Positions 3,649-51,345 of a DNA stretch of 64,000 nt are shown here, one piece after another (the first letter of the stretch is position 1; every line of letters begins with the position of its first letter). The stretch lies in contig CAVXLD010000001.1 of NCBI GenBank assembly GCA_963762565.1, forward strand, positions 1,248,001 through 1,312,000. Direction: 5' to 3'. The stretch is from an uncultured Verrucomicrobiae bacterium (lineage in GTDB: Bacteria > Verrucomicrobiota > Verrucomicrobiia > Chthoniobacterales > JAFAMB01). The translations under genes and the position numbers were made by a program. The notes beneath the pieces are model-generated. The model was not told the origin of the DNA, searched no databases, and saw nothing but the letters and a program-made list of their open reading frames with translations.

Positions 3649-4812
3649 CCTCAGACCGTCCTTGAACAGATCAAACAAGGGGGAACCCAACTGATTAGCG
3701 AACAGGAGTTGCTCCAGAAGTTGGCTGAGAATCGGCCGCTGAGGGTGAAGCTGGGAGTAGATCCTACTTCTCCTGATTTGCACTTAGGACACTCTGTGGC
3801 GCTAGCGAAGATGCGTCAATTTCAAGACTTCGGCCATCAAGGGGTCCTTATCATTGGCAATTTCACCAGCATGGTCGGTGACCCGACTGGACGGTCCGCC
3901 ACTCGGCCCGTCCTGACTGCAGAAGAAGTCGCCGCTAACGCTGAGACCTACCGGGCCCAAGCGTTCAAAATTCTCGATCCTGGTCGGACCGAGATAGTCT
4001 GGAACGCCGATTGGCTCGGAAAAATGACCTATCTCGACGTCATCCGGCTCAACAGCAGAGTGACACTCCAACAGATGCAGCAACGGGACGATTTTCGACG
4101 CAGGCTTGACGAGGGGAGCCCGGTCTTTCTCCACGAGTTGCAATATCCGATTCTTCAAGGGTGGGATTCGGTCGTGATTCGAGCAGATGTTGAGCTCGGT
4201 GCTACCGAGCAAATGTTTAATATCATGGTGGGCCGCGCATTGCAGAAAGAGCACGGACAACCGCAACAGATCGCCTGCTTATTGCCAATCCTTGAAGGCC
4301 TGGATGGAGTTCAAAAGATGAGCAAGAGCCTGGGCAATTACATCGGGCTGACCGACGCGCCAGAGGCGATGTTCGGTAAAATCATGAGCATCTCGGACGA
4401 GTTGATGGGTCGTTATTACGAGGTGTTGTTTAACGAGCCGGCGCCGGACGGTCATCCGCTCGACGCAAAGAAGGCTCTGGCGTCTCGGATCGTGACTCGT
4501 TACCACGACGCCATGGCGGCGAAAACAGCCTTGGAGGAATTCGAACGGCGGTTCGGCAAACGCGACCTGGAGTCGGCAAACTTACCCGAGGTACCGGTGA
4601 GCGCTCTAGGAAATGATCTGGTATCCGCCATCGTCACCGCGTATGCGATGGCGTTTAATCTAAACCGTTCCCGAAGCGATGTCCGTCGGCTCATCGAACA
4701 AGGCAGTGTCCAGTGGCAAGGCGAAAAGATAACTAATCCGAAAGAATGCCCCGCATTTCAGGCCGGCGAGGTCCTGAAACTGGATAAGACCCGAGCGGTC
4801 AGGTTGGTGTAG
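3637..4812 (+). CDS. tyrS: Tyrosine--tRNA ligase
   Basis: GVDPTSPDLHLGH (HIGH), KMSKS, C-terminal S4-like domain; start GTG 3637 or 3643. Confidence 0.97.
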   Translation: MNVNPQTVLEQIKQGGTQLISEQELLQKLAENRPLRVKLGVDPTSPDLHLGHSVALAKMRQFQDFGHQGVLIIGNFTSMVGDPTGRSATRPVLTAEEVAANAETYRAQAFKILDPGRTEIVWNADWLGKMTYLDVIRLNSRVTLQQMQQRDDFRRRLDEGSPVFLHELQYPILQGWDSVVIRADVELGATEQMFNIMVGRALQKEHGQPQQIACLLPILEGLDGVQKMSKSLGNYIGLTDAPEAMFGKIMSISDELMGRYYEVLFNEPAPDGHPLDAKKALASRIVTRYHDAMAAKTALEEFERRFGKRDLESANLPEVPVSALGNDLVSAIVTAYAMAFNLNRSRSDVRRLIEQGSVQWQGEKITNPKECPAFQAGEVLKLDKTRAVRLV

Positions 4813-15831: not shown

Positions 15832-15896
15832 GTTTCTTGAATAGCGTCTATCTTGGGGTGTCAGACTGGGACTTATTTGAGAGCGTTGGATCGATT

Positions 15897-17258
15897 ATGA
15901 ATTTAAGGCTCGCTCTATTATCGACAGGTTTGCTGTTCGTCCTCGTTGGGAGGAGCTCGGCCGAGAATACCGCGCAAATTCCAATTAATCACATCATCTA
16001 TATCATCCAGGAGAACATCACTTTCGATCACTACTTCGGGACGTATCCTGGAGCGGACGGCATCCCAGCCGACGTGAAATTCGCCTTTCGACCCGGAGGG
16101 AAACCTAAACTTGGCCCTTTTCATTTAACGAAGACTGCGATTCCGCACGACCTGAATCACAGCTGGCAAGCCGCCCGGACCGCTTACGACGGGGGCAAAA
16201 TGGACGGGTTTCTCTGGGCGGAATGGCCCGAGGCCTTGCATTACTATTGGCGAGGCGAAGTGCCTCAGATTAATCCAGCCAAGATTGAGCCGGTTGCAGG
16301 TCTGCCCGGTAAAGGCGGCCCGATGTTTAGCACCAATGTTCTTGACGGGCAACTAATCGGAAAACGGCCGAACTCGGCTCCATCGGGCCCGCCACCAGAT
16401 TGGGTTTTGAATACTCTCTCCTATTACGATTATCACGAAGTCCCCAACTATTGGGAGTACGCCCGTCGGTACACCCTGTGCGACCGTTTCTTTTCCTCGC
16501 TCAAAGGACCCAGTGAACCCAATCACCTCTACACCATTGCCGCGCAGTCCGGCGGATTAGTGAATAATCCGGGACCAGATATCGCTCGAAAAGAGGCAGT
16601 TTATAATTTCAAGACCGTCGCCGAGTTGTTGCAGAGCAAAGGCGTCAGTTGGAAGTATTACGACGAGAAACCGAATCCTCACCAGCATACCTTATGGAAT
16701 CCGTTGCCCGGATTTAAGAGCTTCACGCCTAACGGAGAGCTAATTAAGAACGTAGTTCCGTTGGATGAATTCTTTTCCGATATCAAAAATGGCGAGCTCC
16801 CTAGTGTTTGTTGGATTGTGCCGAACGGACCAGACAGCGAACACCCACCTCAGGATTCCGCTCGAGGCATGTGGCATGTAACGGACCTGGTGAATGCGGT
16901 GATGAATAGCCCGTTCTGGAAAGATACTGCCATCATCATTACCTGGGACGACTATGGAGGCTTTTACGATCATGTTGCTCCCCCAAAGATCGACAAGTAT
17001 GGCTATGGGTTCCGAGTTCCCGGGCTAGTTATCTCGGCTTACGCACGACCCGGGTTTGTTGATCACACCCAATTCGATTTCACTTCGCCGTTGAAGTTGA
17101 TTGAGACGCGATTCAATCTGCCGGCTTTAACCGACCGCGATCGCGCCGCGAATGACATGCTCAGTTGTTTCGATTTTAAGCAACAACCCTTATCGCCCGA
17201 TCCGATCACAAAAGGTACCAAGCTGGATTTTTCGGCTGTGAAACCGACGCGACCGTAA
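15897..17258 (+). CDS. Secreted phosphoesterase / phospholipase C family protein
   Basis: Signal peptide; [39 protein letters not shown]. Confidence 0.9.
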
Positions 17259-17274
17259 GGGGGGCGTGTTAGGT

Positions 17275-17526
17275 TGGTGGGGCGAGGCTCCCGCACGGTC
17301 CCGACCGCTTTCCAGGGCCCGACGTTTGAAACGAAAGAGGCGATCTTTGGGCCAAAGCGCTCGCCGAGCCGTGTCCATGGCGGGGCTATGTTCCAACGCG
17401 TCGAATCGGATTGGCGCACGCCGGGCCGCGGCTCGGCAACGCTTCGGCCAGGCGGCGGGCACAGGTTTGAAAACCACCAATCGGTTCGCGCACCTTTTGA
17501 GGAAGATCAGGAGCCTCTCCCCACCA
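17275..17526. mobile_element. REP/MITE-like foldback, family A copy 2
   Basis: TGGTGGGGCGAGGCTCC / GGAGCCTCTCCCCACCA; inner GCCGAGCCG 17363-17371 / CGGCTCGGC 17429-17437. Confidence 0.75.
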
Positions 17527-17598
17527 GTCTTGGGACGGAAGTCCCTAGCCCAGGGCATACGAATCCAACGAATTGGCAAGAAAACAATTGCGATACAT

Positions 17599-17620
17599 TG
17601 CTATCTTAGTACATATGTAC
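17599..17620 (+). promoter_or_regulatory. Extended -10 (TGcTATCTT) followed by a perfect palindrome GTACATATGTAC
   Basis: Palindrome 17609-17620, two nt before ATG 17623. Confidence 0.55.
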
Positions 17621-17622
17621 CA

Positions 17623-17898
17623 ATGTCAAACGCGAACGATCGTCAATCCCATGTTGAAATCGAACGCGTTCAGACCGGGGTTCGCCTCGAAAAAAAGCTG
17701 CTTAAAGTGCTCAAGGCGGTTGCCGAGCTGAAAGATATGTCCCTGGGAGATCTCCTGGAAGGAATCGTCCTTCACGCGTTTGAAGGTAAATCCGCCTTTA
17801 CCCGGGACACGCTTAAAGAAATTGAACAACTCAAGACTATCTACGGCTTAACCCTAAGCGCGGAAGATAGTCACAAACTCAGGGAACGTTCCCGATGA
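17623..17898 (+). CDS. Small conserved hypothetical protein, ribbon-helix-helix-like
   Basis: RVQTGVRLEKKLLKVLKAVAELKDMSLGDLLEGIV has a beta-alpha-alpha pattern; the longer tracked ORF reads through a repeat. Confidence 0.75.
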   Translation: MSNANDRQSHVEIERVQTGVRLEKKLLKVLKAVAELKDMSLGDLLEGIVLHAFEGKSAFTRDTLKEIEQLKTIYGLTLSAEDSHKLRERSR

Positions 17899-18434
17899 AA
17901 ACCGGGTTCATTGTTTTCATCATTGTCGGAGCAATTGCGTTTATGACCGTTTTATCTCAAGCCGATCATCATTCCGGAGGGACGGCTTCTCCGGTCCACG
18001 TTCGCACGGAGTTCGAGCTCACGGTTCGTGCCCCTTACAACGTCTCGTTTCCACTATTCGGGCCGGTTGGCGAGCGACCGTGGGCAGGAGGTGACTGGGA
18101 TCCCCAGTTTGTTTATCCAAGCCCCGGGGCAGATATCCAAGGAACGGTTTTCACGATAAAGCATGGCCCTCATCAGGCGATCTGGGTGAACACCGCATTC
18201 GACGTTGAAGGGCGCCACATTCAGTATGCCTATTTCATTACTGACGTGATGGTGACGACCATTAATCTCACTTTTCTTCCTCTGGATTCAGCTAGCACAA
18301 AGGTCTCCGTCGTATATGACCGGACCGCTCTCAGTGTCGCGGCAAATGATCATGTACAACAATTCGCAGCCGCTGACCGCGCGAGAGGTGCTGACTGGGA
18401 AAAAGCGATTAATGCCTGCATCCAGAAACACTGA
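17895..18434 (+). CDS. Hypothetical exported protein, possibly SRPBCC/START-like fold
   Basis: Signal-like N-terminus; ATGA overlap with the upstream gene; C-terminal WEKAIN helix. Confidence 0.7.
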   Translation: MKTGFIVFIIVGAIAFMTVLSQADHHSGGTASPVHVRTEFELTVRAPYNVSFPLFGPVGERPWAGGDWDPQFVYPSPGADIQGTVFTIKHGPHQAIWVNTAFDVEGRHIQYAYFITDVMVTTINLTFLPLDSASTKVSVVYDRTALSVAANDHVQQFAAADRARGADWEKAINACIQKH

Positions 18435-20738: not shown

Positions 20739-20914
20739 CAATCCTATCGAACCTGCGCGTCCCAAATCCGGGACTCCGTGCCCAAAGGCGGAATATGGTG
20801 TCCGGCGCTTGGCAGCAAAGTTAAACCGCGTTCCCTGGGGAGCGCGGTCCAAATACCACCAAAATGATGTTGGCACGCGAAATGATATAGGAGTGTTCCG
20901 TGCCCAGCGAGCTT

Positions 20915-21028
20915 ATGAAAACTTCACGCATTCCCAGAGAACAAAATCCTTACTTCCTGACAGGTCGAGGTAAGAAAAAAGTCTGGTTCTTTTTCTGGAC
21001 AACTGCTCCCAGGAAAAATGCTCGCTAG
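20915..21028 (+). CDS. Unannotated 37-aa peptide MKTSRIPREQNPYFLTGRGKKKVWFFFWTTAPRKNAR
   Basis: Paralogue at 33835-33942 with synonymous-only core changes; alternative in-frame GTG 20900 with AGGAG; terminator downstream. Confidence 0.8.
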   Translation: MKTSRIPREQNPYFLTGRGKKKVWFFFWTTAPRKNAR

Positions 21029-21057
21029 AGCGATTTTCTTTTAAGTTTTTTCTCAAT

Positions 21058-21083
21058 GCCCGGGATTTACTCCCGGGCTTTTT
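21058..21083 (+). terminator. Rho-independent terminator
   Basis: GCCCGGGA-tttac-TCCCGGGC followed by TTTTT. Confidence 0.8.
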
Positions 21084-21125
21084 GTTGCGTACGGAAAGAA
21101 CGAGAATACGAGATTTCGGACGGCA

Positions 21126-21352
21126 GGTAGGGCGAAAAACTCGGCGCGCCCATGATGATATTTCGCCGAACAAAATCCGCGCCGGTTTTGAGCCGCGCCG
21201 TGCGTGTAGCAGCATCAGCGGCTGATTCGACCTGAGGGTTCCGGATTCGGCCGCACGTTGGACAGAATGGCCGCACGCAATGGCTCAAAACCGGCGCGAT
21301 TTTATTCAATTCGCAAACCGCATCGTGGGCGCGCCGAGTTTTTCGCCCTACC
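21126..21352. mobile_element. MITE/REPIN-like foldback, family D
   Basis: 27-bp perfect IR GGTAGGGCGAAAAACTCGGCGCGCCCA with ~50 bp further imperfect pairing; 15-bp end fragment at 4817-4831. Confidence 0.8.
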
Positions 21353-21374
21353 GGCCCCGACCAATCACCAATCA

Positions 21375-33530: not shown

Positions 33531-33574
33531 TTTTTTTGAAACTTTGAGCGGCGCTTTCCGGTATTACCTCGTGA
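33531..33574 (+). promoter_or_regulatory. Bipartite motif T7-GAAA-N19-GTAYTACCTMGTGA, copy 2
   Basis: Matches 25044-25087 in both blocks and in spacer length. Confidence 0.5.
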
Positions 33575-33677
33575 CGATTGATGCGGTGAGCAGGGCGTTC
33601 CGGGGCAAAAAATTGATTAAAAATTTTGTCAATTAAGGAGGGCGCCGTTCGTCGTTTAGAAAAGATTGAACTGACCT

Positions 33678-33812
33678 ATGAGAACAAAAACCATTTCGGA
33701 TTATCCGCTTCTGATCGGAGAACTGATCCGCCGTTCCGAACTACGGAAAGCACGGCGCCAACGATGGTCGGCGTTCTTTAAGATCAATCGACTCGCACAA
33801 CGAACTAAGTAA
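33678..33812 (+). CDS. Candidate 44-aa basic peptide MRTKTISDYPLLIGELIRRSELRKARRQRWSAFFKINRLAQRTK
   Basis: ATG...TAA ending 22 nt before the next small ORF; A-rich leader. Confidence 0.45.
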   Translation: MRTKTISDYPLLIGELIRRSELRKARRQRWSAFFKINRLAQRTK

Positions 33813-33834: not shown

Positions 33835-33942
33835 ATGAGATTTACAAGACTCCCACGGGAACAAAATCCCTACTTTCTGACGGGTAGAGGTAAGAAGAGA
33901 GCCTGGTTTTTCTTTCGCTGGAGCTCGGCCAAGAGGCGCTAG
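33835..33942 (+). CDS. Unannotated 35-aa peptide MRFTRLPREQNPYFLTGRGKKRAWFFFRWSSAKRR
   Basis: Paralogue of 20915-21028. Confidence 0.8.
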   Translation: MRFTRLPREQNPYFLTGRGKKRAWFFFRWSSAKRR

Positions 33943-34105: not shown

Positions 34106-35050
34106 TTAATGAGGGACAGGCGAAGACGGGATCTCTATTGCGGGTTTCGGAAGAAAACTTTGCCCCTTGGTTTTCATGAATTTCCAAATAGCGCTGCCCG
34201 CTGGGGTCAGCACTCGATCCGAGTGATGAACGATGTACCACTCCCGAAAAATAGGTAGGCCGTTCATTTTAAGAATTACCAACCGGCCAGTCGCGAGTTC
34301 GAACTCAACGGTATGCGCTGAAATCAAGGCGAGGCCAAGCCCAGCCATGACTGCCTGTTTAACAGTCTCGTTTGACGCGATCTCGATTTTGATTTTATCG
34401 AACTGAATCGGCAGCCCGCCGAAGAAGTATTCAAACATGCTCCGGGTCTCGGAGCCGACTTCGCGCAGGATAAAATTTTGATTGGTTAGGTCTGCTTTCG
34501 AGACGAGAGGTTGGCCCGCTAATGGATGATCAGGCGGGGCGACAAGGATGTATGGGTGTGGCCCGATTGCTTCACTGGTTACACCAAAATCTTCGGGTGG
34601 GCGGCCCATCAAACCGATATCCGCTTCAAAGTCGCGCAGGGTTGAAATAACGGTGCTGCGATTGCCCACATGGATTCGGAGATCGATTTGCGGGTGTTCC
34701 TTCATGAACGCCGCGATCAGCCATGGCGCAAAGTACTTCGCGGTCGCGATGAAGGCGATACGCACGCGGCCACCCAAGTATCCGTTTCTGCCGTGTAGCG
34801 CACTGAGAAGGTCGTCCATTACATTATCAATGCGGGTAGCAGCTGCTACCACTTCTTTGCCCGCGTCAGTCAATCGCAAGCGGCCTTCGAATCGTTCGAA
34901 CAACTCGAGTCCTAAATCCTCTTCCAGGGATTTAACCCGAGAAGTAAGCGCTGCCGGAGTCACGCGGAGGGCTAGCGCTGCCTTGACCATGCTGCCACAC
35001 CTGGCTACTTCGCGGATTGTTTCTAGCTGCCTGAACGTAAGATTATGCAT
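34106..35050 (-). CDS. LysR-type regulator, CbbR-like subfamily
   Basis: TAKYFAP, LMGRPP, REVGSETR, SNETVKQAVMAGLG, SAHT, GLP..R.W. Confidence 0.88.
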   Translation of the reverse strand: MHNLTFRQLETIREVARCGSMVKAALALRVTPAALTSRVKSLEEDLGLELFERFEGRLRLTDAGKEVVAAATRIDNVMDDLLSALHGRNGYLGGRVRIAFIATAKYFAPWLIAAFMKEHPQIDLRIHVGNRSTVISTLRDFEADIGLMGRPPEDFGVTSEAIGPHPYILVAPPDHPLAGQPLVSKADLTNQNFILREVGSETRSMFEYFFGGLPIQFDKIKIEIASNETVKQAVMAGLGLALISAHTVEFELATGRLVILKMNGLPIFREWYIVHHSDRVLTPAGSAIWKFMKTKGQSFLPKPAIEIPSSPVPH

Positions 35051-35215
35051 CGTGCATCCGCCAGCTTTCCCCCTTTCTCCAAGATCGCCTTACGACAATA
35101 CGCAGATTAAATTAGTTTCACCAGAGCGAGGTTGTCCCAACGCGGTTTGAGGGTTACTCTTTTGATCAAGCCTCCCAGCGGCGACCGGAAAAACTATCCC
35201 CCAGGACCTCTAAAC

Positions 35216-35842
35216 GTGGCTGCGCCTGACTACATTCAGAATCAAGGCCTTATTAAAACGTTGCGCCGTTTTCGCGAGCAACCCCGCTCTCTGCAAGAGA
35301 AATGCGAATTTTGTGGCGTTGGTCTCGAGACAGAACACCGGCATTTATTGGAAGTCTCGAAAAACCGAATTGCCTGCACTTGCTCTCCTTGCGCCCTCCG
35401 ATTCCAGGATGTGGTCGGAGGTCGGTTTAAGCTAATCCCGAGAGATGTCCGGCATTTGTCCGAATTCGATATGTCAGACGGGGAATGGGAAAACCTGGCC
35501 CTCCCGATCAATCTTGCGTTCTTTTTCTACAGCACACCCCAACAAAAGATGAACGCGATGTATCCTAGTCCGGCCGGTGCAACCGAGTCGCTTCTGCCGC
35601 TCACAGCTTGGACTTCCTTGACCGAAAAGAATTCGGCTTTGACGAGGATGGAGGCAGACGTGGAGGCGCTTTTGGTAAATCGGGTTGGCGCGAAGCGTGA
35701 ATATTACATTGTACCAGTCGATGTCTGTTTTGAGCTGATCGGCCTAATTCGCATCCATTGGCGCGGATTCTCGGGTGGAGACAAAGTCTGGGAAGAAGTC
35801 GAGAGATTCTTTGCCAAGCTCGACACAAATTCTTGTTCATGA
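35216..35842 (+). CDS. Group 1h hydrogenase-associated protein (DUF5947-like)
   Basis: EKCEFC, CTCSPCAL, YPSPAGATES, HWRGFSGG; start GTG 35216 assumed. Confidence 0.85.
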   Translation: MAAPDYIQNQGLIKTLRRFREQPRSLQEKCEFCGVGLETEHRHLLEVSKNRIACTCSPCALRFQDVVGGRFKLIPRDVRHLSEFDMSDGEWENLALPINLAFFFYSTPQQKMNAMYPSPAGATESLLPLTAWTSLTEKNSALTRMEADVEALLVNRVGAKREYYIVPVDVCFELIGLIRIHWRGFSGGDKVWEEVERFFAKLDTNSCS

Positions 35843-35908
35843 GGGCCCTTAGCGTGGTTCGAGCGGGCTTTCATCGCGAAAAAACTCTGTTAGGGCGCTC
35901 AAAAACCG

Positions 35909-36553
35909 ATGCCTGACCTTGATTTCAAAGTGACGGGAGTGGGACCGGCAGCGCGTGGGTTATTGCCGTTGCTTCATTTCAATCTGCAGATTTCGAATCG
36001 GCCGCCTGCTGAATTGATTCAGGCGGTAATGATCCAGGCTCAGATACAGATTCAATCGGCCCAGCGCTCGTATAATGACGGGGAAAGAGAGAAATTAGAG
36101 GATCTCTTCGGCACACCTGATCGTTGGGGTCAGACACTGCGCAATCGGCTGTGGACGCACGCCAGCACGACGGTGTCACCTTTTTCCGGAGAGACCGAGG
36201 TCATTCTGCCGGTCCAATGCACTTACGATTTTAACGTGATCGGCACGAAGTATTTTTATGCCTTGGATGGAGGGGAAGTGCCGTTGCTGTTTCTGTTTAG
36301 CGGGACCGTTTTTTACTCGGGACCGCACGGCGAACTACTAGTGCAACAGATTTCGTGGGACAAGGAGTGCGCCTATCGGATGCCAGCGAAAGTCTGGTCC
36401 GATTTAATGAACCATCACTATCCCAATAGTGCTTGGCTTTCTTTGCAGCGGGACGTCTTCGACAAATTAACTGATTTCAAGCGTAAACGCGGTTTGCTAA
36501 CTTGGGAGCAGGCTCTGGAGCTCCTATTGGAGGGTGCAACCAAAGAGCAATAG
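35909..36553 (+). CDS. Group 1h hydrogenase-associated protein (DUF6084-like)
   Basis: DLFGTPDRWGQTLR, CTYDF, PLLFLFSGTVFY, HYPNSAW. Confidence 0.85.
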   Translation: MPDLDFKVTGVGPAARGLLPLLHFNLQISNRPPAELIQAVMIQAQIQIQSAQRSYNDGEREKLEDLFGTPDRWGQTLRNRLWTHASTTVSPFSGETEVILPVQCTYDFNVIGTKYFYALDGGEVPLLFLFSGTVFYSGPHGELLVQQISWDKECAYRMPAKVWSDLMNHHYPNSAWLSLQRDVFDKLTDFKRKRGLLTWEQALELLLEGATKEQ

Positions 36554-36600
36554 AGCGACTGCGTAGAGAACTGTGTAAGGCGAAGGCCCCCCGGTAACCT

Positions 36601-38487
36601 ATGAATCTTCCCTTAGTTAACGAAGTGGTCGAAGCGGTGTTGTATGAAGGATATATCCTTTATCCTTACCGGCCTTCCGCGAAGAAAAACCGGCAACGGT
36701 TCACTTTTGGTCGCGTTTATCCGCGCGCTTACAGCGAGGCGCAAAAAGGAGCGGAACCTTTCGTGATGACCACGCAGTGTTTGGCTCATAGCCAAGGGGA
36801 AGGGACGCGGCTGGAAGTCAGTACCCGTTTCTTGCAGGTGACTTCCAGAGAGATCCTATCGCCCCGGGAACCTTTGCCCGACCTACCGGCAGCTTTGTCT
36901 CCGGGGTTGGCAGAAGTTGTGCCCGAACTTGTAGTCGAGGGTCAGCATTTTTTAACCTGGCAAGAGGCAGTTGAACGAGAGATTAATATCGCTCCGCGAG
37001 ATCCAAAGCAGATCTCTGGCGCGGCCTGCCGTCTGGCCTTCGAAGTTCCCGCCTCCGAGAATTTGGAGCCGATAAAAGATAGCCGCGGATCGATCGTCGG
37101 CATAATCCGGCGGCGTCAGGAAAGGTTAGCGGGAGAGATCCTGCTTCAAGTTGAGGAGCTACGGTCACGTGTATTTAAGATCAAGGTAGATGTCAGCAAT
37201 CAGACTCCCATCTCAGAACCCGACCTCGAGAATCAGGATTCGGTTCTGCTGCGGACCCTGGCCTCAACCCATACCATCCTCCATCTGGAGGATGCAGAAT
37301 TTATCTCCTTGATGGATCCTCCGGATTCGCTGCGCGAATTGGCTTCCTCTTGCAAAAATGAGGGAACCTGGCCGGTATTGGTCGGGGACGAAGAAGCCGG
37401 CGATCGGAGAACCATGCTTTCCTCGCCTATTATTCTCTACGACTACCCAAAAATTGCTGCGGAGAGCCCCGGCGAATTGTTTGACGGTACCGAGATCGAC
37501 GAGATTCTGACCTTGCGCGTCATGACCATGACGGATGCCGAAAAAGACGAAATGCGCCAATCGGACCCCCGGGCACGCCGGATCTTGGAGCGCACAGAGT
37601 CAATGCCGGAAGATCAATTGCTAAAGATGCATGGGGTTGTCCGCGAGCTGCGACCATTTGGCGATGATCCCTTTAGCGATGACTTTTTTAGCAATGACCG
37701 GCGCCTAGAGGTTGCTGAGGTTAACGGTGTACAGCTTCGCGCTGGGGATCGAGTGATAATTAGACCTAAATCCAGAGCGGATATCATGGATATGGCGCTG
37801 GAAGGAAAGATAGCGACGATCGAGGCGATCGAACAGGATGCCGAAAGTCGCATTCATCTGGCTTTGGTACTGGATGACGATCCAGGCAAAGACCTCGGGT
37901 TCATGCGCCAGCCCGGCCATCGATTCTTTTATACGCTCGACGAGGTAGAGCCTGTTTCGGAAAATCAAATGAATGCGAACGGGCGCATTCTGGTTGCCGG
38001 CATCGGGAATATTTTCTTCGGCGATGACGCGTTTGGCGGCGAAGTAATAAAAGAGCTCACGAAATCTCAACTGCCCCAGAAGGTCGACGCGAAGGACTTC
38101 GGCATCCGTGGGTATGATCTGGCCTACGCGATCATGGACGGCTATGCGGCCACGATTCTAGTGGATATTACCGCGAAAGGGGAGCCTCCTGGAACGCTCT
38201 ACCTGATTGAGTTAGACCAAGAAAAGATTGCGAACGTGGAGGCGTCAATTCCGGATGCCCATAGCCTTGGGCCTGTCCAAGTCCTTCGTCTGGTTAAATC
38301 GTTGGGCGGCCAGATTACCGCACTCTACTTGGTCGCCTGCGAGCCGGCAGTTTTAGAGACGGAAGATGGTCACATTGGTCTGAGCGAACCAGTACAAGCC
38401 GCTGTGCCTGAGGCCATTCAGATGATTCAAAGGCTCATCGAGCGACTGCGTCTCCCGGCGAATGGTTCGCCGCCGCCTGAGCAGTGA
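36601..38487 (+). CDS. Hydrogenase-associated hypothetical protein fused in frame to a hydrogenase maturation endopeptidase (from ATG 37969)
   Basis: AVLYEGYILYPYR, SPIILYDYP, FDGTEIDEIL, RFFYTLDEVEP; then ILVAGIGNIFFGDDAFG...DFGIRG...DAHSL...ACEP. Confidence 0.85.
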   Translation: MNLPLVNEVVEAVLYEGYILYPYRPSAKKNRQRFTFGRVYPRAYSEAQKGAEPFVMTTQCLAHSQGEGTRLEVSTRFLQVTSREILSPREPLPDLPAALSPGLAEVVPELVVEGQHFLTWQEAVEREINIAPRDPKQISGAACRLAFEVPASENLEPIKDSRGSIVGIIRRRQERLAGEILLQVEELRSRVFKIKVDVSNQTPISEPDLENQDSVLLRTLASTHTILHLEDAEFISLMDPPDSLRELASSCKNEGTWPVLVGDEEAGDRRTMLSSPIILYDYPKIAAESPGELFDGTEIDEILTLRVMTMTDAEKDEMRQSDPRARRILERTESMPEDQLLKMHGVVRELRPFGDDPFSDDFFSNDRRLEVAEVNGVQLRAGDRVIIRPKSRADIMDMALEGKIATIEAIEQDAESRIHLALVLDDDPGKDLGFMRQPGHRFFYTLDEVEPVSENQMNANGRILVAGIGNIFFGDDAFGGEVIKELTKSQLPQKVDAKDFGIRGYDLAYAIMDGYAATILVDITAKGEPPGTLYLIELDQEKIANVEASIPDAHSLGPVQVLRLVKSLGGQITALYLVACEPAVLETEDGHIGLSEPVQAAVPEAIQMIQRLIERLRLPANGSPPPEQ

Positions 38488-38515
38488 GTACCGCACGCGA
38501 GGCTCAGTGCCCAGG

Positions 38516-38678
38516 TAGGAGCTAGGAGCTGGAATCTAGGAGCTAGGAGGAGGTCCCAGGCGAACCAACGGGACTCCGGGTTCATATGCGCGCCTGAGTC
38601 CCCTGTTCTTTTCCCTAGGTGTCGAGTTTTGCCTGAAGTGTCTGCTCCTAGATTCTAGATCCCGGCTCCTAGCTCCTG
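38516..38678. repeat. Inverted pair of 7-mer tandem arrays (TAGGAGC)n ... (GCTCCTA)n
   Basis: 38516-38549 and 38644-38678. Confidence 0.8.
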
Positions 38679-38764
38679 AATTGATGGCTCGAAGGGACGC
38701 ACAAATCCCGGAAATTGGCAAAGGAATCACTCCACTCGCTTTGTCCGCCATCCGAAAGCGCCAT

Positions 38765-38829
38765 TAAAAAAAATTTAAGCAGAATCAAGGAATTTCAATT
38801 TGCCTTAATCCGGCCAACAATGATACGGT
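38765..38829 (+). promoter_or_regulatory. Candidate CbbR-type operator overlapping a sigma-70-like promoter
   Basis: TAA 38765, TTA 38775, TCA 38785, TCA 38795, TTA 38805 (TNA-N7-TNA chain); TTGCCT 38800-38805; TGaTACGGT 38821-38829. Confidence 0.6.
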
Positions 38830-38993
38830 CCGAATATTCACCCCCCGTCGGCTACTCTCGGTCCGAGTGGTCAAATGCATATGGCAGCAATTTCTTGTTC
38901 CACCGAGGAGGGCCTCCGACTGCAGTCGAGTTGTAGGCCGCCCGCGCGGGATGTGTTCAGCGACGGGCGGATTTCAGAAAAGGTAATCGGATA

Positions 38994-39557
38994 ATGAGCG
39001 CCAAAATCTCTTCCTTCCCCGGGACATCCGGACGTAGTGCCGATCTTCTACTGGAAAAGCTCCAGGATCCCAAGGTCGCCGAATCATTGGTTTCGCTTTT
39101 GGAAAAGTCACAAGTGCTTAACGACTTTCTCGAACGAAGCGAGGGCATGTTAAACTCGATCACAAAAGGGGTCGGAGATCTCGGCCGGGTCGGGGTAGCC
39201 ACCCTTTCGGAAACCTTTAAATCGGTCGAATTGGACGACCTGAAAGCGGCGGGCGGACATTTACAGGCCATGATTCCGGCAGTGCGAGATTTAATGCGCG
39301 AGCTCGGCTCGCTCAAAGAGTCCGGTTTCTTTGATCCCGAAGTGATCAAACTCTTCGGGAGAACGACTCGGGCCATGGCCGCAGCTGCCCGAGACCCTGA
39401 TGCGCATTCCGATGACACCTATGGGATTTTCAGCGTAGGCGGCTTGCTGAAGGATCCTGAGATTGCTCGTACCTTAAACTTTTTTATTTCATTCGCTCGC
39501 CATTTCGGGGGCGATCTCAAACAAGACGGAGCAGGTTCCGCCAACGAAAAAAAATGA
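38994..39557 (+). CDS. DUF1641-like helical protein
   Basis: C-terminal GIFSVGGLLKDPEIARTLNFFISFARHFG. Confidence 0.7.
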   Translation: MSAKISSFPGTSGRSADLLLEKLQDPKVAESLVSLLEKSQVLNDFLERSEGMLNSITKGVGDLGRVGVATLSETFKSVELDDLKAAGGHLQAMIPAVRDLMRELGSLKESGFFDPEVIKLFGRTTRAMAAAARDPDAHSDDTYGIFSVGGLLKDPEIARTLNFFISFARHFGGDLKQDGAGSANEKK

Positions 39558-39629
39558 ATCGGGAGCGAAGCCGAGATTGGATCGGCTCGCAACAAAATAT
39601 CCTAAAAGCCAAAACGGAAGCGTAAAACC

Positions 39630-40691
39630 ATGGCAGCAGCAGCATCCCCTCAAATCGGAGCCCATCGTCCGCCGGACGTGAAGGAAGTCCACGTTGTATG
39701 GATGACGACCGGTCTTGGATGCGACGGCGACTCAGTTTCAGTCACCGCCGCTACCTTACCCAGTATCGAAGATGTCGTTATGGGAGCAATTCCCGGTCTC
39801 CCTAAAGTTCATCTGTATAATCCGGTCTTGGCCTATGAAGTTGGCGACGACTTCATGCAGTACTGGTACAAAGCGGCGGAAGGGAAGTTAGATCCGTTTG
39901 TGCTCATAGTGGAAGGTTCAATTCCGAACGAGAAGATTAAAAAAGAAGGCTACTGGGCGGCGCTAGGCACCGACTCGAAAACCGGCCAACCGATAACCAC
40001 CAATGAATGGTTGGACCGCCTTTCGCCTAAAGCATTAGCCATCGTTGCTTGCGGCACCTGCGCTACCTACGGGGGTATCCATGCCATGGAGGGTAACCCG
40101 ACAGGAGCAATGGGAGTGGCGGATTATCTCGGCTGGGATTGGCGCTCAAAAGCTGGTCTTCCGATTATTAATGTCCCTGGTTGTCCGGTCCAGCCCGACA
40201 ACATGATGGAGACCTTGCTTTACCTGCTGTACCAGGTTGCCGGTTTAGCGCCGGTGATACCGTTGGATGACGAGCTCCGACCCAAATGGTTGTTCAGCAA
40301 GACGGTACACGAAGGGTGTGACCGCGGCGGCTACTATGAAGAGGGTGACTTCGCCGACACTTACGGTTCGCCCAAGTGCATCGTGAAACTCGGCTGCTGG
40401 GGGCCGGTTGTTAACTGTAACGTCACCAAACGAGGGTGGATGGACGGGATCGGAGGATGCCCCAACGTAGGCGGCATCTGTATCGGCTGCACTATGCCGG
40501 GTTTTCCGGACCAGTTCATGCCATTTATGAATCCGCCGCCCGGCGCAATGATTTCCTCCGCGGTTTCCGGGGTAACGGGAGGCATTATTCATGCGTTACG
40601 AGAGATCACGCAACGCGCCGCGAATAAGGAGCCCACTTGGCGCCATCCTCGCGCTCAACTAACGACGGGTTATCAACCCACCACCTATTAA
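39630..40691 (+). CDS. hhyS: [NiFe]-hydrogenase small subunit, group 1h-type (no Tat signal)
   Basis: GLGCDGDS, CGTCATYGG, PGCP, HEGCDR, CIVKLGCWGP, CPNVGGICIGC. Confidence 0.93.
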   Translation: MAAAASPQIGAHRPPDVKEVHVVWMTTGLGCDGDSVSVTAATLPSIEDVVMGAIPGLPKVHLYNPVLAYEVGDDFMQYWYKAAEGKLDPFVLIVEGSIPNEKIKKEGYWAALGTDSKTGQPITTNEWLDRLSPKALAIVACGTCATYGGIHAMEGNPTGAMGVADYLGWDWRSKAGLPIINVPGCPVQPDNMMETLLYLLYQVAGLAPVIPLDDELRPKWLFSKTVHEGCDRGGYYEEGDFADTYGSPKCIVKLGCWGPVVNCNVTKRGWMDGIGGCPNVGGICIGCTMPGFPDQFMPFMNPPPGAMISSAVSGVTGGIIHALREITQRAANKEPTWRHPRAQLTTGYQPTTY

Positions 40692-40737
40692 CCCTCTGCC
40701 GTCCAACCAAAATTTCGCCAACCGAAGGAACTAACCA

Positions 40738-42543
40738 ATGTCAGTTGCAACTGCTCCCGTTAAGGGAACCAAGTCTCACCCGGAAAATATCGTGGAAATG
40801 TCTTGGGATCCGATTACCCGGATCGTTGGAAGTTTGGGCATTTTTACGAAAATTGATTTTGCTAACAAAAAGGTGGTCGAGTGTCACAGCACATCTTCCA
40901 TCTTCCGGGGGTACAGCATTTTCATGAAAAACAAAGATCCCCGCGATGCGCATTTCATTACTAGCCGTATCTGTGGGATCTGCGGTGATAATCACTGCAC
41001 CTGCTCGATCTACGCCCAGAACATGGCTTACGGAATTAAGCCACCCCCAATGGCGGAGTGGATCCTGAATCTGGGTGAGGCGGCCGAATACATGTTCGAT
41101 CACAATATTTTCCAGGACAATCTGGTGGGGGTCGATTTTTGCGAGAAGATGGTGCGCGAAACCAATCCTAGCGTTTGGGAGAAAGCCAAGACCACAGATT
41201 CGCCTCACGCTGCCGATCATGGATACCGCAAGATATCGGATATCATGACGGCGCTGAACCCGTTCGAAGGCGAATTCTATCGCGAGACCTTGCAAGTAAG
41301 CCGGATGACACGTGAAATGTTCTGCCTGATGGAAGGGCGCCATGTGCATCCGTCGACCTTGTATCCGGGTGGTGTCGGCACGGTGCCATCGGTACAATTG
41401 TTTACCGATTTTCTCGTTCGGTTGATGAAATATATCGAGTTCATGAAGCGATGCGTACCGCTGCATGACGATCTCTTCGATTTCTTCTACGAAGCGTTAC
41501 CTGGTTACGAGCAAGTTGGTTTCCGCCGGACGCTCATGGGCTGCTGGGGATCTTTCCAGGATCCTGACGTCTGTGATTACAACTACAAGACGATGGATAA
41601 GTGGGGGAAGGCAATGTTTGTTACCCCCGGAATCATCGTCGACGGAGAGTTAGTAACCACGAATCTGGTCGACATCAACGTCGGGCTACGAATCTTGCTC
41701 GGCTCTTCCTATTACGAAGATTGGGATAAGAGCGAAACCTTTGTTAAGCAAGATCCGCTGGGCAATCCGATCGATCAACATCATCCGTGGAATCAAACCA
41801 CGATTCCAAAACCGCAGAAGCGTGATTTCGCTGGGAACTACACCTGGGTGATGTCACCACGCTGGCTTGATAAACGGACTGGAGACCATCTGGCGTTAGA
41901 CACTGGCGGCGGGCCTCTACCTCGTCTCTGGGTGACGGCCATGGCCGGCCTGGTGGATTGCGGTTATGTCAAGTCTACTGGACATAGCGTTAAGATTATC
42001 CTCCCGAAAACCGCGATGAAGCCGGAGGTCGAGTTGGAGTGGAAGATTCCGAAATGGAGCAATGCACTCGAACGGGATCGGGCTCGCACTTATTTCCAAG
42101 CTTATTCCGCAGCCGTGGCGATGCATTTCGTGGAGAAAGCGATGAAAGAACTACATGCTGGCCGTACCGAAACGTTCACGCCATTCAAAGTGCCGAGCGA
42201 AGCGATCGGGTGCGGGTTCCATGAGGCTGTCCGCGGTGTGCTCTCGCATCACCTCGTGATTCGAAACGGTAAAATAGCTAACTATCATCCGTATCCGCCG
42301 ACGTGCTGGAATGCTAATCCCCGGGATGTATACGGTACCCCTGGCCCCTACGAAGATGCCGTGCAGAATACGCCGATCTTCGAAGAGAACGGGCCCGATA
42401 AGTTTAAGGGAATCGATATTATGCGGGCGGTACGCAGCTTCGATCCCTGCTTACCATGCGGGGTCCACATGTACTTAGGCGATGGCAAGGTAGTGGAACA
42501 GATGCACACCCCAACCGTGTACGCTGGACTCGCCAAAAAATGA
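40738..42543 (+). CDS. hhyL: [NiFe]-hydrogenase large subunit, group 1h-type
   Basis: L1 TSRICGICGDNH, L2 SFDPCLPCGVH, N-terminal WDPITRIVGSLGI. Confidence 0.95.
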   Translation: MSVATAPVKGTKSHPENIVEMSWDPITRIVGSLGIFTKIDFANKKVVECHSTSSIFRGYSIFMKNKDPRDAHFITSRICGICGDNHCTCSIYAQNMAYGIKPPPMAEWILNLGEAAEYMFDHNIFQDNLVGVDFCEKMVRETNPSVWEKAKTTDSPHAADHGYRKISDIMTALNPFEGEFYRETLQVSRMTREMFCLMEGRHVHPSTLYPGGVGTVPSVQLFTDFLVRLMKYIEFMKRCVPLHDDLFDFFYEALPGYEQVGFRRTLMGCWGSFQDPDVCDYNYKTMDKWGKAMFVTPGIIVDGELVTTNLVDINVGLRILLGSSYYEDWDKSETFVKQDPLGNPIDQHHPWNQTTIPKPQKRDFAGNYTWVMSPRWLDKRTGDHLALDTGGGPLPRLWVTAMAGLVDCGYVKSTGHSVKIILPKTAMKPEVELEWKIPKWSNALERDRARTYFQAYSAAVAMHFVEKAMKELHAGRTETFTPFKVPSEAIGCGFHEAVRGVLSHHLVIRNGKIANYHPYPPTCWNANPRDVYGTPGPYEDAVQNTPIFEENGPDKFKGIDIMRAVRSFDPCLPCGVHMYLGDGKVVEQMHTPTVYAGLAKK

Positions 42544-42570
42544 GGGCTCCCGCTACGCTAACAACGGCGT

Positions 42571-42628
42571 CGGCCTCGCACCTGTCGCGCCGTAGTTTGG
42601 CGAAGGCGGAAGCGAGGCGCGCTCCACG
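42571..42628. repeat. REP palindrome (family E) split by the 30-bp mini-element at 42581-42610
   Basis: CGGCCTCGCA|insert|AGCGAGGCGCGCTCCACG versus intact copies at 13607, 49373 and 54421. Confidence 0.8.
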
Positions 42629-42640
42629 GAAAGAAAGGCT

Positions 42641-43315
42641 ATGATTCAACAAATCGAAGCGGTCCCAGAAGAGATCTACGACATTGAACTTGAACATAGC
42701 CTTTTAGAAGCAAACGCAAAACTTGCCCAAGAAAACCGGAACGAACTCGATCGCCGCGGGGTGACGGCGATCGATGTAATGGGAGCGATTGGATCCGGTA
42801 AAACGACACTGATCACGCGTCTGGTAGGAAGATTAAAGGATCGATTTGGAGTCGCCGTATTTAACGGCGATGCCACCACGAGTAACGATGCCGACCAGAT
42901 CGCCAGTCAGAGTGTACCTGTAGTCCAGATCGCCACCGTCAACGGCTGCCATCTGGACGCTAACCTGGTTGGGAAAGCTCTGCGGAAGATAACCTTAGAC
43001 AATTTGCGGCTGATCTTTATCGAAAACATTGGCAACCTGATCTGTCCCGCCGAGTTTCCGTTAGGCTCGAAAGCCCGAGTAGTAGTGGTCAGTGTTACCG
43101 AAGGTCCTTACATGGTCAGGAAACATCCTCACATGTTTATGGGAGCGCAGTTAGTTGTGATCAATAAGATCGATCTGGCTGAGGCCATGGAAGTCAGCGT
43201 GGCGGATTTAACCCAGGATGTTCACCGGTTAAAGCCTGACCTGACGGTGATTCCGACGAGCTGTAAGACCGGCGCTGGGCTCGATGAGGTAATGGCAGCA
43301 CTGCTCGCGGTGTGA
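42641..43315 (+). CDS. hypB: Hydrogenase nickel-insertion GTPase
   Basis: GAIGSGKT, GCHLDA, ENIGNLICP, NKID. Confidence 0.95.
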   Translation: MIQQIEAVPEEIYDIELEHSLLEANAKLAQENRNELDRRGVTAIDVMGAIGSGKTTLITRLVGRLKDRFGVAVFNGDATTSNDADQIASQSVPVVQIATVNGCHLDANLVGKALRKITLDNLRLIFIENIGNLICPAEFPLGSKARVVVVSVTEGPYMVRKHPHMFMGAQLVVINKIDLAEAMEVSVADLTQDVHRLKPDLTVIPTSCKTGAGLDEVMAALLAV

Positions 43316-43329
43316 AAAATGATCCGCCG

Positions 43330-43731
43330 ATGCATGAGTTATCCATCGCCTCGGCGGTAGTCGACAGCGTGCTCGAGTTTGTGACTGAACGCTCCGTAAA
43401 AAGAGTGATCTCAGTCAAACTGGCGGTTGGCGAGTTGACCCAGGTAGAAGAAGAACAACTCCGTTTCTCCTACATGGCGATTACCCAGGAAACGCCGATC
43501 CAAGACTCAGAATTAGAAATCGAACGGATCCCAGCCGTAGTGCGGTGTCAGGAGTGTGGCTATTCTGGGCGCCCGAAGTATTGGGAGGACGCCCTCGCGG
43601 TCGCACCGATACCAACCATGCAATGTCCTGATTGCGGAGGCACGGTCGAGCCCGTGGAAGGAAACGATTGCGCGATCAGATCGATCCGGTTCGCGACTGA
43701 AGATAACGGTATGGCCGTTCCGGCTGCCTGA
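43330..43731 (+). CDS. hypA: Hydrogenase nickel chaperone
   Basis: MHELSIA, CQEC...CPDC. Confidence 0.93.
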   Translation: MHELSIASAVVDSVLEFVTERSVKRVISVKLAVGELTQVEEEQLRFSYMAITQETPIQDSELEIERIPAVVRCQECGYSGRPKYWEDALAVAPIPTMQCPDCGGTVEPVEGNDCAIRSIRFATEDNGMAVPAA

Positions 43732-43739
43732 AACTTTTT

Positions 43740-44666
43740 ATGGAAGGAAATCTTAACGTGCCGAGTAGCAACGGAAACTCGGAGACGAGTTCGCAGTCCG
43801 GAGGGTCAGCCGGCGATATCAATGCGCATGGCGATCGCATTCAGCGGCTTCTCGAACGAGTGGAAGCATTGCCGTATCCCGGTGCCAGAGAACTCATTCA
43901 CGAATGCATGGAGGCGGTGCTGGCATTTTACGGAGTCGGGTTGCAGCGGATTCTGCAAGTAGTAAGCGGAGATGGCGCGGAGGGCCGCAAGGTCTACCGT
44001 GACTTAATTCATGACGATGTGGTGAGAGGATTGCTTCTGATTCATGACCTCCATCCAGCGGACTTGGAGACCCGCCTGCGAGAAGCTTTAGATAAAGTGC
44101 GGCCCTATTTGAAGAGCCATGGCGGTAACGTTGAGCTGATTAGCCTGCAAAACGATATCGCCAGGTTGCGGTTACAGGGCACTTGTGAAAGCTGCGCTTC
44201 ATCTTCGGTGACCCTGGAACTCGCGATCCGCCATGCGATCGAGCAGGCCTGTCCCGACTTGGCGCACTTTGAGGTTGAAGGTATGCAAGACAAACCGGCG
44301 GCTTCACTAGTAGCGCAGCGCAAGGTTACTGATTGGACGGTCATAAAGAGCGCACATCAGCTCGAAGAAGGAGCTTGGATGCCGGTTCGGCTAGGGGACA
44401 CTCGGCTGGTAGTGTGCAAGCTCAATGGAACGCTTTACGCTTATCGCAATCGTTGTCCGGCCTGTAATATGCCGCTGGACACGGGCACCTTTGCCGCCGG
44501 TTTTCTCTCCTGCGCATTGAATCACCGCTACGATGTGATCCATGCGGGCCAATGCGCGGAAGTCCCTAGCGCACATCTCGATCCTCTTCCCCTTTTGATC
44601 CAGAACAGCGTCGTGAAAGTGGCGCTCACGCGAGAGGTCGCGGATGCAGCCGCAGAAACCGTTTAG
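43740..44666 (+). CDS. NifU-like domain + Rieske-like domain protein
   Basis: VRPYLKSHGGNVEL...GTCESC; C-terminal RCPAC...SCALNH. Confidence 0.85.
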   Translation: MEGNLNVPSSNGNSETSSQSGGSAGDINAHGDRIQRLLERVEALPYPGARELIHECMEAVLAFYGVGLQRILQVVSGDGAEGRKVYRDLIHDDVVRGLLLIHDLHPADLETRLREALDKVRPYLKSHGGNVELISLQNDIARLRLQGTCESCASSSVTLELAIRHAIEQACPDLAHFEVEGMQDKPAASLVAQRKVTDWTVIKSAHQLEEGAWMPVRLGDTRLVVCKLNGTLYAYRNRCPACNMPLDTGTFAAGFLSCALNHRYDVIHAGQCAEVPSAHLDPLPLLIQNSVVKVALTREVADAAAETV

Positions 44667-44691
44667 CCAAAAACTTCAGCCAGCGGATCCG

Positions 44692-46989: not shown

Positions 46990-47303
46990 ACCTGCTCTTC
47001 GGCCAAATCGTCGACATGTTCTCAGAAGACGGGATGTGGTTTGGTAAAATCCGGGTCGGCGGCGCTTTTAAGAAAATCTCTCTAGAACTTATAGAAGAAG
47101 CTCAGATCGGAGATCGAGTCCTGGTTTGCGACGGTATCGCGCTGAGCAAGGAGGAACCGATTGAACCGCTTTCCGAGCAGCTCTCATCCGCTAGGCAAGA
47201 GCGGCACGCCAACCCTCCAATACTCCAGCACTCCAACACTCCACCCGCCGAACTCGAGGGCGCCACCGAAGCGCTTAACGAGCCGGTCCAAGGATTTTTT
47301 TAA
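46986..47303 (+). CDS. Divergent HypC/HupF-like protein lacking the N-terminal Cys
   Basis: GDRVLVCDGIALSK resembles the Hyp[13 protein letters not shown]; tail reads through an 8-mer repeat (PPILQHSNTP). Confidence 0.7.
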   Translation: MNLLFGQIVDMFSEDGMWFGKIRVGGAFKKISLELIEEAQIGDRVLVCDGIALSKEEPIEPLSEQLSSARQERHANPPILQHSNTPPAELEGATEALNEPVQGFF

Positions 47304-47311
47304 ACAAAACT

Positions 47312-47566
47312 ATGTGTCTAGCAATACCGGGTAAACTCATCGAAATCTCGCAAGACGCACAAGGCGTCAGAATGGGAAAGGCGAACTTTGGCGGTATCGT
47401 CAAACAGGTCTGTTTGGAATACACGCCGGAAGTGAACACGGGTGACTATGTCTTAGTGCACGTCGGGTTTGCGCTAGGCAAGGTTGATGAAGAAGAAGCG
47501 GCGCGCACGTACCGGCTTCTGGAAGAAATGAATCAGTTGAGTGAACTCGAAGTACCAGACGTGTGA
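47312..47566 (+). CDS. hypC: Hydrogenase chaperone HypC
   Basis: [19 protein letters not shown]. Confidence 0.96.
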
Positions 47567-47586
47567 GTTCCGCCCAGAGGCTGCGT

Positions 47587-48741: not shown

Positions 48742-49370
48742 GCACGACCCATCAGAGCGGGACCATCGTCGATAAAACGACTGAAAGCTTTCGCGACAAA
48801 GTCATTCGTAAGTGCGGCGAAAGCGTCGAGATGAAGGAAAAATTTTTTAACAAATACGCTGAGCCGCTCGAAGCGATGTCACGGGATATGGCGGAACACT
48901 TTCAGCATGGCGGCCGGCTTTTCGTCATGGGTAACGGTGGCAGCCTTTGCGACGCCTTACACATGTGCGTCGAGTTTAACCATCCGATCATCGAAAAACG
49001 GGCAGCGTTTCCGGTGATTCCGCTGATGACCGATATCGCGACCATGACCGCAATTGGCAACGATATCGATTTCACCCGAGTTTTCGTTAACCAGCTTCGC
49101 CTGTTGAGCTTGCCGGGTGACATGGCCATGGTCTTCAGCACCAGCGGCAAATCGCCGAACCTAATCTATGCGCTGCAAGCCGCGAGGGAAAAAGAGATGT
49201 TAACGATCGCCTTCGCCGGCAAAGATGGCGGCCGATTTCCCGATATCGCCGATTACTGTTTCATTGTGCCGTCTTACAGTATTCATCGGATCCAGGAGGT
49301 ACACGCCACGGCGGTGCATGTTGTCTGGGACCTGGTTCACATCGCTTTGGGCGCAGAGGACGTGACGTAA
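48738..49370 (+). CDS. SIS-domain protein, GmhA/phosphoheptose isomerase-like
   Basis: GNGGS, TAIGND, STSGKS.N, HRIQE.H; ATGA overlap with hypD. Confidence 0.88.
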
Positions 49371-49372
49371 CG

Positions 49373-49434
49373 TGGAGGGCGCCTCGCTTGCGAGGGCCCG
49401 TGGTCGGTCGGCCTCGCAAGCGAGGCGCCCTCCA
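49373..49434. repeat. REP doublet, family E
   Basis: 23-bp perfect IR TGGAGGGCGCCTCGCTTGCGAGG. Confidence 0.85.
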
Positions 49435-49448
49435 AGGTTCGGAATCTT

Positions 49449-51255: not shown

Positions 51256-51345
51256 CAAGAACCAACCGCGGTTTGGGCAAAGTCCGACAATTCCCGAAAA
51301 TAGAAATTTTCAGTCTCGATTTTGGATTACGATTGCAGCCAGTCC

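Follow-up and report, generated by a model that had tools for sequence, protein, structure and literature searches.

Inner-membrane regulators of less than 50 amino acids that are co-regulated with their target have been described in several systems and include AcrZ, which pairs with the AcrAB pump, SpoVM and lambda CIII, which both act on FtsH, and AzuC and MgtS. Conserved bacterial small proteins with a basic-aromatic anchor are, as a kind, already known. The mini-protein family reported here resembles these regulators in size, in being encoded by a stand-alone small gene and in its placement in stress regulons, with one of its types (type C) located within the palindromic sites of an efflux operon and another (type A) directly after ftsH. 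It differs from them, however, in having no sequence similarity to any of them, neither a transmembrane helix nor a classical amphipathic helix, an invariant polar block of 11 residues and several paralogues per genome, and any binding of the mini-proteins to the targets of these regulators would be hypothetical. Basic-aromatic membrane-binding clusters of the MARCKS effector-domain type and Trp/Arg-rich cationic peptides share with the mini-proteins a Lys/Arg run beside clustered Phe and Trp residues and a strongly favourable computed interfacial partitioning. These are eukaryotic domains or secreted host-defence peptides, whereas the mini-protein has no export signal and possesses an extra conserved N-terminal motif, and the resemblance is one of composition only.

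The analysed stretch of DNA (64,000 nt; hereafter the window) derives from an uncultured Verrucomicrobiae bacterium (Chthoniobacterales; JAFAMB01; assembly GCA_963762565.1, contig CAVXLD010000001.1, positions 1,248,001-1,312,000 of the forward strand). It contains two genes of the family, and only two according to a six-frame motif scan. Copy 1 (type A; 20915-21028, forward strand) translates to the 37-residue MKTSRIPREQNPYFLTGRGKKKVWFFFWTTAPRKNAR, with a net charge of +9 and 7 aromatic residues, and copy 2 (type B; 33835-33942, forward strand) to the 35-residue MRFTRLPREQNPYFLTGRGKKRAWFFFRWSSAKRR, with a net charge of +10 and 8 aromatic residues. Both translations are exactly those of a preliminary description of this DNA, which also reported that a core of 15 residues, PREQNPYFLTGRGKK, is identical in the two copies despite synonymous codon differences. 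Inspection of the DNA confirmed this: 7 codons of the core differ, all synonymously (copy 1/copy 2: CCC/CCA, AGA/CGG, CCT/CCC, TTC/TTT, ACA/ACG, CGA/AGA, AAA/AAG), and the WFFF stretch holds the 3 further synonymous differences that had been counted there (TTC/TTT, TTT/TTC, TTC/TTT). Outside the ORFs, the sequences flanking copy 1 cannot be aligned with those flanking copy 2. Pfam assignments for the window ORFs place copy 1 directly after ftsH and agree with the earlier view that the two copies bracket a block of kinase, ECF sigma factor, alpha-2-macroglobulin and pbpC genes, the kinase being a PEGA/FGE-domain Ser/Thr kinase and the alpha-2-macroglobulin of the bacterial kind. Both loci are genuine, independently transcribed genes of a previously undescribed family of 35-49 residues. 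Its members share a build of three parts. A few basic residues at the N-terminus precede the invariant polar and aromatic block PREQNPYFL(T/S)G, and the third part consists of a basic run, an aromatic patch (W/F-F-F-x-x-W) and a tail that is again basic.

The preliminary description did not recognise this family, and neither do the resources consulted here. Profiles of Pfam, NCBIfam, PADLOC and PHROGs gave no family match at E<=10, tblastn against phages and plasmids returned no match, and the ESM Atlas gave no usable match for either the mini-protein or the 44-residue protein encoded next to copy 2 (see below). The PDB likewise yielded no relative, and no description of the family was found in the part of the published literature that was accessible to us; the family is undescribed. 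One PDB profile match, to Bacillus subtilis Pol III delta (3zh9_B; NPYFLTG plus KK, 12 residues, E=0.12), was judged to be due to chance, and the idea of clamp-loader or clamp-binding mimicry derived from it was dropped as unsupported. A PqqA-like precursor, considered because of a Glu-x3-Tyr spacing, was rejected as well, there being no NCBIfam or Pfam match and no pqq genes in the window or at the other loci.

Relatives were sought in one genome per species with the exact word PREQNPYF only, a scan that under-samples diverged members and the true taxonomic range. It returned 13 loci (L001 to L013), of which 12 are true relatives in 7 genomes with 1-3 copies each, all labelled Verrucomicrobiota, Chthoniobacterales or Verrucomicrobiae. 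A search of related genomes had been proposed as a check; the scan found the same peptide encoded at 12 loci elsewhere, far above chance. At the remaining locus (L013, Clostridia), LPREQNPYFL belongs to the N-terminus of a protein of the phage integrase family and represents a chance 8-mer match. As far as sampled, only Verrucomicrobiota of the Chthoniobacterales type carry the family, each genome having 1-3 paralogues that were detected.

A profile search of 1.84 billion representatives of all lengths gave 28 matches, 27 of which are short proteins with the motif (39-157 amino acids, the motif standing at differing offsets through miscalled starts or read-through). About 27 metagenome protein clusters carry the block PREQNPYFLTG. 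A fused or longer form of the protein was considered and rejected: the only long match, P0031 (504 amino acids), is a repetitive protein that does not contain the motif and, with all other matches being short, there is no longer parent protein. When the 42-residue GTG-extended ORF of copy 1 was used as the query, 7 metagenome proteins were obtained, all called "hypothetical". The label "unannotated" given to the genes earlier holds for copy 1, which had no match at or above 90% identity in this search, but not for its relatives, which are called "hypothetical protein" in metagenome sets. In two metagenome proteins (P0019 and P0028) the upstream region that contains the 44-residue gene in type B is read in shifted frames and fused to the peptide, which may reflect assembly error or decay.

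The claim that selection acts on the peptide was assessed on 14 genomic copies, i.e., the two of the window and the 12 related loci, with pN/pS calculated over 19 codons. Within the PREQNPYFLTG block all 11 third codon positions vary among the copies, against 2 of the 11 first and 1 of the 11 second positions; the varied first positions belong to the six-fold codons of Arg and Leu, and the varied second position to the Thr/Ser change. The pN/pS ratio is 0.26 in the peptide frame and 1.1-1.7 in four of the other frames, with the antisense frame that shares the wobble positions at 0.34. Stops interrupt this antisense frame in 9 of the 14 copies and the remaining frames in 9, 11, 12, and 14 copies, leaving the peptide frame as the sole frame that is open in every copy. 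Purifying selection acts on the peptide frame, and it is almost certain that the mini-proteins form a real coding gene family, as had been supposed.

Among the findings that the preliminary description named as speaking against such a gene were frameshifts or stops in homologues and conservation through RNA structure. The first finds no counterpart in the 14 copies. With regard to the second, no conserved structure was found: the RNAalifold consensus comprises 3 pairs at -0.4 kcal/mol, and the folding z-score of the copy 1 transcript is only -1.68. An explanation without any protein, in which the conservation stems from a repeat, from a different reading frame or from an element acting as RNA, could draw on Rfam matches over the 3' end and the terminator. 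Neither locus has a match at the gathering threshold, however, and those seen at E<=1 lie far below it (L20_leader, 22.8 bits vs 58.7; anti-hemB, 20.2 bits vs 49.5). The concentration of core variation at third codon positions, the stops in the other five frames, the lack of a consensus structure and the unalignable flanks of the paralogues effectively refute this explanation. For so short a gene the coding signature is unusually clean, which makes the family well suited as a positive control when methods for finding small ORFs are assessed.

The start of copy 1 is likely the ATG at 20915. An AGGAG (20889-20893) followed by an in-frame GTG (20900) had been noted upstream of it, and both are indeed present. 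The GTG is not conserved, however, since L002 has GTA at this position and the extension differs in length and sequence among the orthologues; it was consequently rejected as the start codon, which leaves the ATG. That the ATG begins the peptide at the same offset, previously noted for the two copies, extends to types A, B, and D; in type C the ATG is one codon nearer the motif, and L007 starts with GTG. A Shine-Dalgarno-like AGGAG stands 7 nt upstream of the ATG in all three type-D copies, and (A/G)AGGA 10 nt upstream of it in 4 of the 5 type-B copies. The terminator attributed to copy 1 was recovered by a terminator scan at 21058-21078 and trails into the T tail TTTTTGTT. With its 8-bp GC-rich stem and the T run it has the features of an intrinsic terminator (21058-21083, forward strand), and it is kept in all three orthologous loci (L001, L002, and L003).

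A nested inverted repeat of ~235 nt separates this terminator from the end of the kinase gene, which converges on copy 1 (window 21122-21157 / 21321-21356; inner arms 21173-21204 / 21272-21303). Its arms of 36 nt are 94% complementary, and the 23-mer of the arm is unique within the window. The repeat is also found at this place in L001 and L003, and L002 has related sequence ahead of the peptide gene; a MITE-like element and a long RNA hairpin are both conceivable. Long inverted repeats recognised by eye also follow the type-D peptide genes at L010 (4433-4550) and L011 (6136-6255), and two metagenome homologues (P0022 and P0026) read through into the type-D 3' inverted repeat.

The copies occur in four conserved settings, and each paralogue type keeps its own neighbourhood and upstream signals. 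Type A (copy 1 and L001-L003) follows ftsH and is convergent with the kinase/ECF pair in 3 of its 4 loci, the contig of L002 ending before any downstream gene. Type B (copy 2, L004, L006, L007, and L009) follows pbpC in the window, L004, L006, and L009; L007, where the short upstream ORF has no Pfam match, aligns with the other type-B loci, and the downstream gene is convergent in all 5. Together with the terminator of copy 1, these convergent arrangements support the view that the genes are stand-alone units. Type C (L005 and L008) is situated between two TetR genes, 20 nt upstream of a TetR-HlyD-MFS operon on the same strand. Type D (L010-L012) is found in phosphoesterase clusters, among phosphoesterase, phosphodiesterase, and LprI-domain genes, and stands out by its strong AGGAG. 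The synteny within each type comes from closely related genomes and is, therefore, not independent evidence for a functional linkage to ftsH, pbpC or the efflux operon. In type A, ftsH is itself preceded by a phosphoesterase gene (PF04185) and by two ORFs that lack a Pfam match (window 15837-18431; L002 729-3290), and the type-D copies likewise lie among PF04185 and PF01663 genes; with PF04185 near both types, the association of the family with phosphoesterase genes recurs.

Types A and D share a promoter-like motif, TGGCAC-N6-TG-N-T, which precedes copy 1 at 20871-20886 (forward strand). It has a single match in the window when both strands are considered, against 0.38 expected, and occurs once each in L001, L002, L010, L011, and L012. 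In all of these it precedes the peptide gene, and it is absent from the other 8 loci. The motif stands 43-44 nt before the ATG in type A and 80-82 nt before it in type D. The preliminary description had proposed an imperfect sigma-54-like element here, TTGGCACG-N4-ATGA at 20870-20885. The sequence is present, and two paralogue types have kept its TGGCAC, which is that of a sigma-54 -24 element; the second half of the assignment does not stand. A -12 element reads TTGC(A/T), with its GC five bases past the -24 hexamer, while ATGA, ATGT or CTGT is found in this position, and TGGCAC-N5-TTGC does not match at the copy 1 site even with 1 mismatch permitted. The site thus resembles sigma-54 (-24/-12) promoters in having TGGCAC at the proper distance from a TG-containing second element, kept in two paralogue types, and departs from them in the replacement of the -12 GC by GA or GT. 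No sigma-54 activator gene was detected by Pfam among the neighbours of the 12 loci. In the type-A copy L003 (3416-3667), the first five residues and the upstream TGGCAC region are replaced by unrelated sequence, the ORF being open from an upstream GTG. This copy may be rearranged or represent an assembly join, or, given the replaced residues and the missing motif, it may be decaying.

Putative regulatory signals of another kind accompany type C. Both loci contain an 18-bp palindrome (half-site TGCAAGTA) four times, arranged as two tandem pairs, 30 nt apart (L005 5868-5916 and 6129-6178; L008 3976-4024 and 4237-4286). One pair lies before the type-C gene; the other covers its last codons with the stop and reaches into the beginning of the TetR-HlyD-MFS operon. 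The palindromes are likely TetR operators. Upstream of the operator pair in L008, just past the first TetR gene, there is also a perfect inverted repeat of 27 nt (3887-3913 / 3940-3966; 100% complementary).

The position of type C directly before a co-directional operon is also what a cis-acting leader or arrest peptide that regulates its downstream gene would occupy, and drug-sensing small ORFs upstream of resistance genes are known. For the family as a whole such a role seems very improbable. A co-directional gene directly downstream is found for the 2 type-C copies only, the next gene is convergent for 8 of the 14 copies, and copy 1 ends in its own terminator. Furthermore, conservation peaks at the N-terminus of the mini-protein, while arrest motifs usually act at the C-terminal end.

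All 13 full members carry a net charge of +8 to +11 and 6-8 aromatic residues, and their longest apolar or aromatic stretch is ~9 residues. The tail past residue 28 varies, with the W-F-F-x-x-W patch being kept. For this aromatic patch of 9 residues (at residues 21-31), the interfacial free energies, computed from composition alone, add up to between -4.3 and -6.7 kcal/mol in 13 of the 13 members, which is at or below the 0.62nd percentile of 17,288 9-mers from 44 window proteins. The members contain no signal peptide, no double-glycine leader and no membrane-spanning stretch. The AF2 model of the mini-protein is weak (pLDDT 62, pTM 0.21) and places its only helix on residues 18-30. A cationic and aromatic tail had already been taken as a hint of membrane or nucleic-acid binding, or of a regulatory or toxin role; the computed composition supports binding at a membrane interface, and the membrane, nucleic-acid, regulator, and toxin roles are all candidates.

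The reading that we tentatively favour, short of calling it probable, is that of a stress-wired protein which would act at the cytoplasmic surface of the membrane and dock a partner through its invariant N-terminal motif. How the mini-proteins are built and composed, and that their upstream signals differ by type, was observed directly, and the localisation, the partner and the effect are inferred. Since there is neither a signal peptide nor a transmembrane stretch, the protein would remain cytoplasmic. Its basic and aromatic C-terminal half would hold it on the anionic inner membrane face, and a single conserved partner would dock on the short motif formed by the invariant N-terminal block and be modulated in its activity. 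The paralogues, in turn, would bring the same effector under differing regulatory inputs, i.e., a TGGCAC-type promoter in types A and D, the TetR/efflux regulon in type C, and co-transcription with a basic helical protein of 44 residues in type B. Of the alternatives, we rank RNA or ribosome binding first, followed by a RiPP or antimicrobial peptide, a self-toxic peptide, the leader peptide and the non-coding explanation discussed above.

The 44-residue protein is encoded by a second conserved small gene (33678-33812, forward strand; MRTKTISDYPLLIGELIRRSELRKARRQRWSAFFKINRLAQRTK) immediately upstream of copy 2. A gene of this kind (43-44 amino acids) precedes all 5 type-B copies and is absent at all other loci. 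It, too, behaves as a coding sequence: 7, 4, and 22 of 42 first, second, and third codon positions vary, respectively, and pN/pS is 0.19, compared with 1.25 and 3.57 in other frames. The protein is represented by 24 metagenome clusters and has no family match in Pfam, NCBIfam, PADLOC or PHROGs at E<=10. The two genes form a putative unit that is preceded by a non-coding leader or promoter region (33560-33677, forward strand), which aligns and is conserved in all 5 type-B loci and in which a scan detected no sigma-70-like site. The AF2 model of the 44-residue protein consists of a single long basic helix (residues 10-43, pLDDT 81). A complex prediction with the type-B peptide scored 0.00, and this result carries no weight in either direction on binding.

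A single long arginine-rich helix is a shape typical of RNA-binding peptides, and its predicted occurrence in the type-B partner adds to the case for the mini-protein being a small RNA- or ribosome-binding protein, with basic residues and stacking aromatics, comparable to the very small basic proteins of the ribosome or associated with it, the paralogues of which would be swapped by condition. The basic-aromatic composition would suit RNA or ribosome binding, so many charges in so few residues point the same way, and the invariant motif suggests one highly conserved partner, e.g., rRNA. Against this, Pfam, NCBIfam, and PDB show no similarity to ribosomal or RNA-binding families, none of the 14 loci has a ribosomal or translation gene context, the family is limited to a narrow clade, and 4-5 consecutive W/F residues are unusual in RNA binders. 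On balance we regard such a role as unlikely, though it stands highest among the alternatives.

The same paired gene bears on the suggestion that the mini-protein is the toxin of a type I-like toxin-antitoxin module, or a self-toxic protein restrained by an RNA or by its 44-residue neighbour. The gene is small, stands alone with a terminator of its own and is present in several copies on the chromosome, all of which would fit. Known type I toxins, however, have a full membrane-spanning helix (~18 residues or more), against a longest apolar run of ~9 residues here. A scan of both strands around copy 1 revealed no promoter-like site, and neither PADLOC nor phages or plasmids contain the family. 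This makes a toxin quite improbable in our view.

A further possibility is that of a RiPP precursor or an exported cationic antimicrobial peptide, in which the aromatic and basic C-terminus would form the core, with PREQNPYFLTG acting as leader or recognition sequence. In common with precursors of the prochlorosin type, the mini-protein is short, occurs in several dispersed copies per genome and is better conserved in its N-terminal part than in its C-terminal tail; one paralogue type (C) moreover adjoins an HlyD-MFS pump, and the W/F/K/R-rich tail can be likened to the substrates of cross-linking enzymes and to cationic antimicrobial peptides. A Pfam search of 75 neighbouring proteins of the 12 loci and 59 window ORFs revealed, however, no radical-SAM, YcaO, lanthipeptide, ATP-grasp, peptidase-transporter or RRE-type gene within ~4.5 kb of the 12 loci or in the window, so that, in contrast to prochlorosins, there is no modifying enzyme near any of the 14 copies. 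The aromatic patch is semi-conserved rather than hypervariable, cores rich in Cys, Ser, and Thr do not occur, and there is no signal or double-glycine leader. We hold a RiPP precursor to be improbable, if less so than a toxin.

A conserved effector present in several copies, tied to an efflux operon by its position and by common operator-like sites and located beside ftsH and pbpC, would offer a concrete handle on envelope or antibiotic stress handling in the carriers. These are Verrucomicrobiota of soil, of the Chthoniobacterales type, abundant and barely tractable, Chthoniobacterales being a dominant soil lineage. Two more far-reaching readings seem doubtful. The family might constitute a new class of stress effectors with a docking motif and a basic-aromatic membrane anchor, duplicated and rewired into envelope and xenobiotic regulons (efflux/TetR, ftsH-linked, pbpC-linked with the helical partner, and a phosphate-scavenging cluster), or, alternatively, its scattered copies might encode the precursors of a novel peptide natural product with aromatic cross-links. 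Annotation systematically misses small proteins, and this single window holds two conserved ones (37/35 and 44 amino acids).

The surroundings of copy 2 vary in one further respect. In L007, genes for NicO and an SSF transporter (815-2422) come immediately after the type-B peptide gene, while in the window ~17 kb (34106-51300) separate copy 2 from NicO/SSF and contain a LysR gene and a complete NiFe-hydrogenase and hyp maturation cluster. L009 carries the LysR/hydrogenase side. The arrangement of L007 compared with that of the window amounts to an insertion or deletion of a hydrogenase island beside copy 2. At the far edge of this hydrogenase block, adjoining NicO, a match to the Acido-Lenti-1 sRNA was found (window 51034-51079, reverse strand), with 41.7 bits vs a gathering score of 37.
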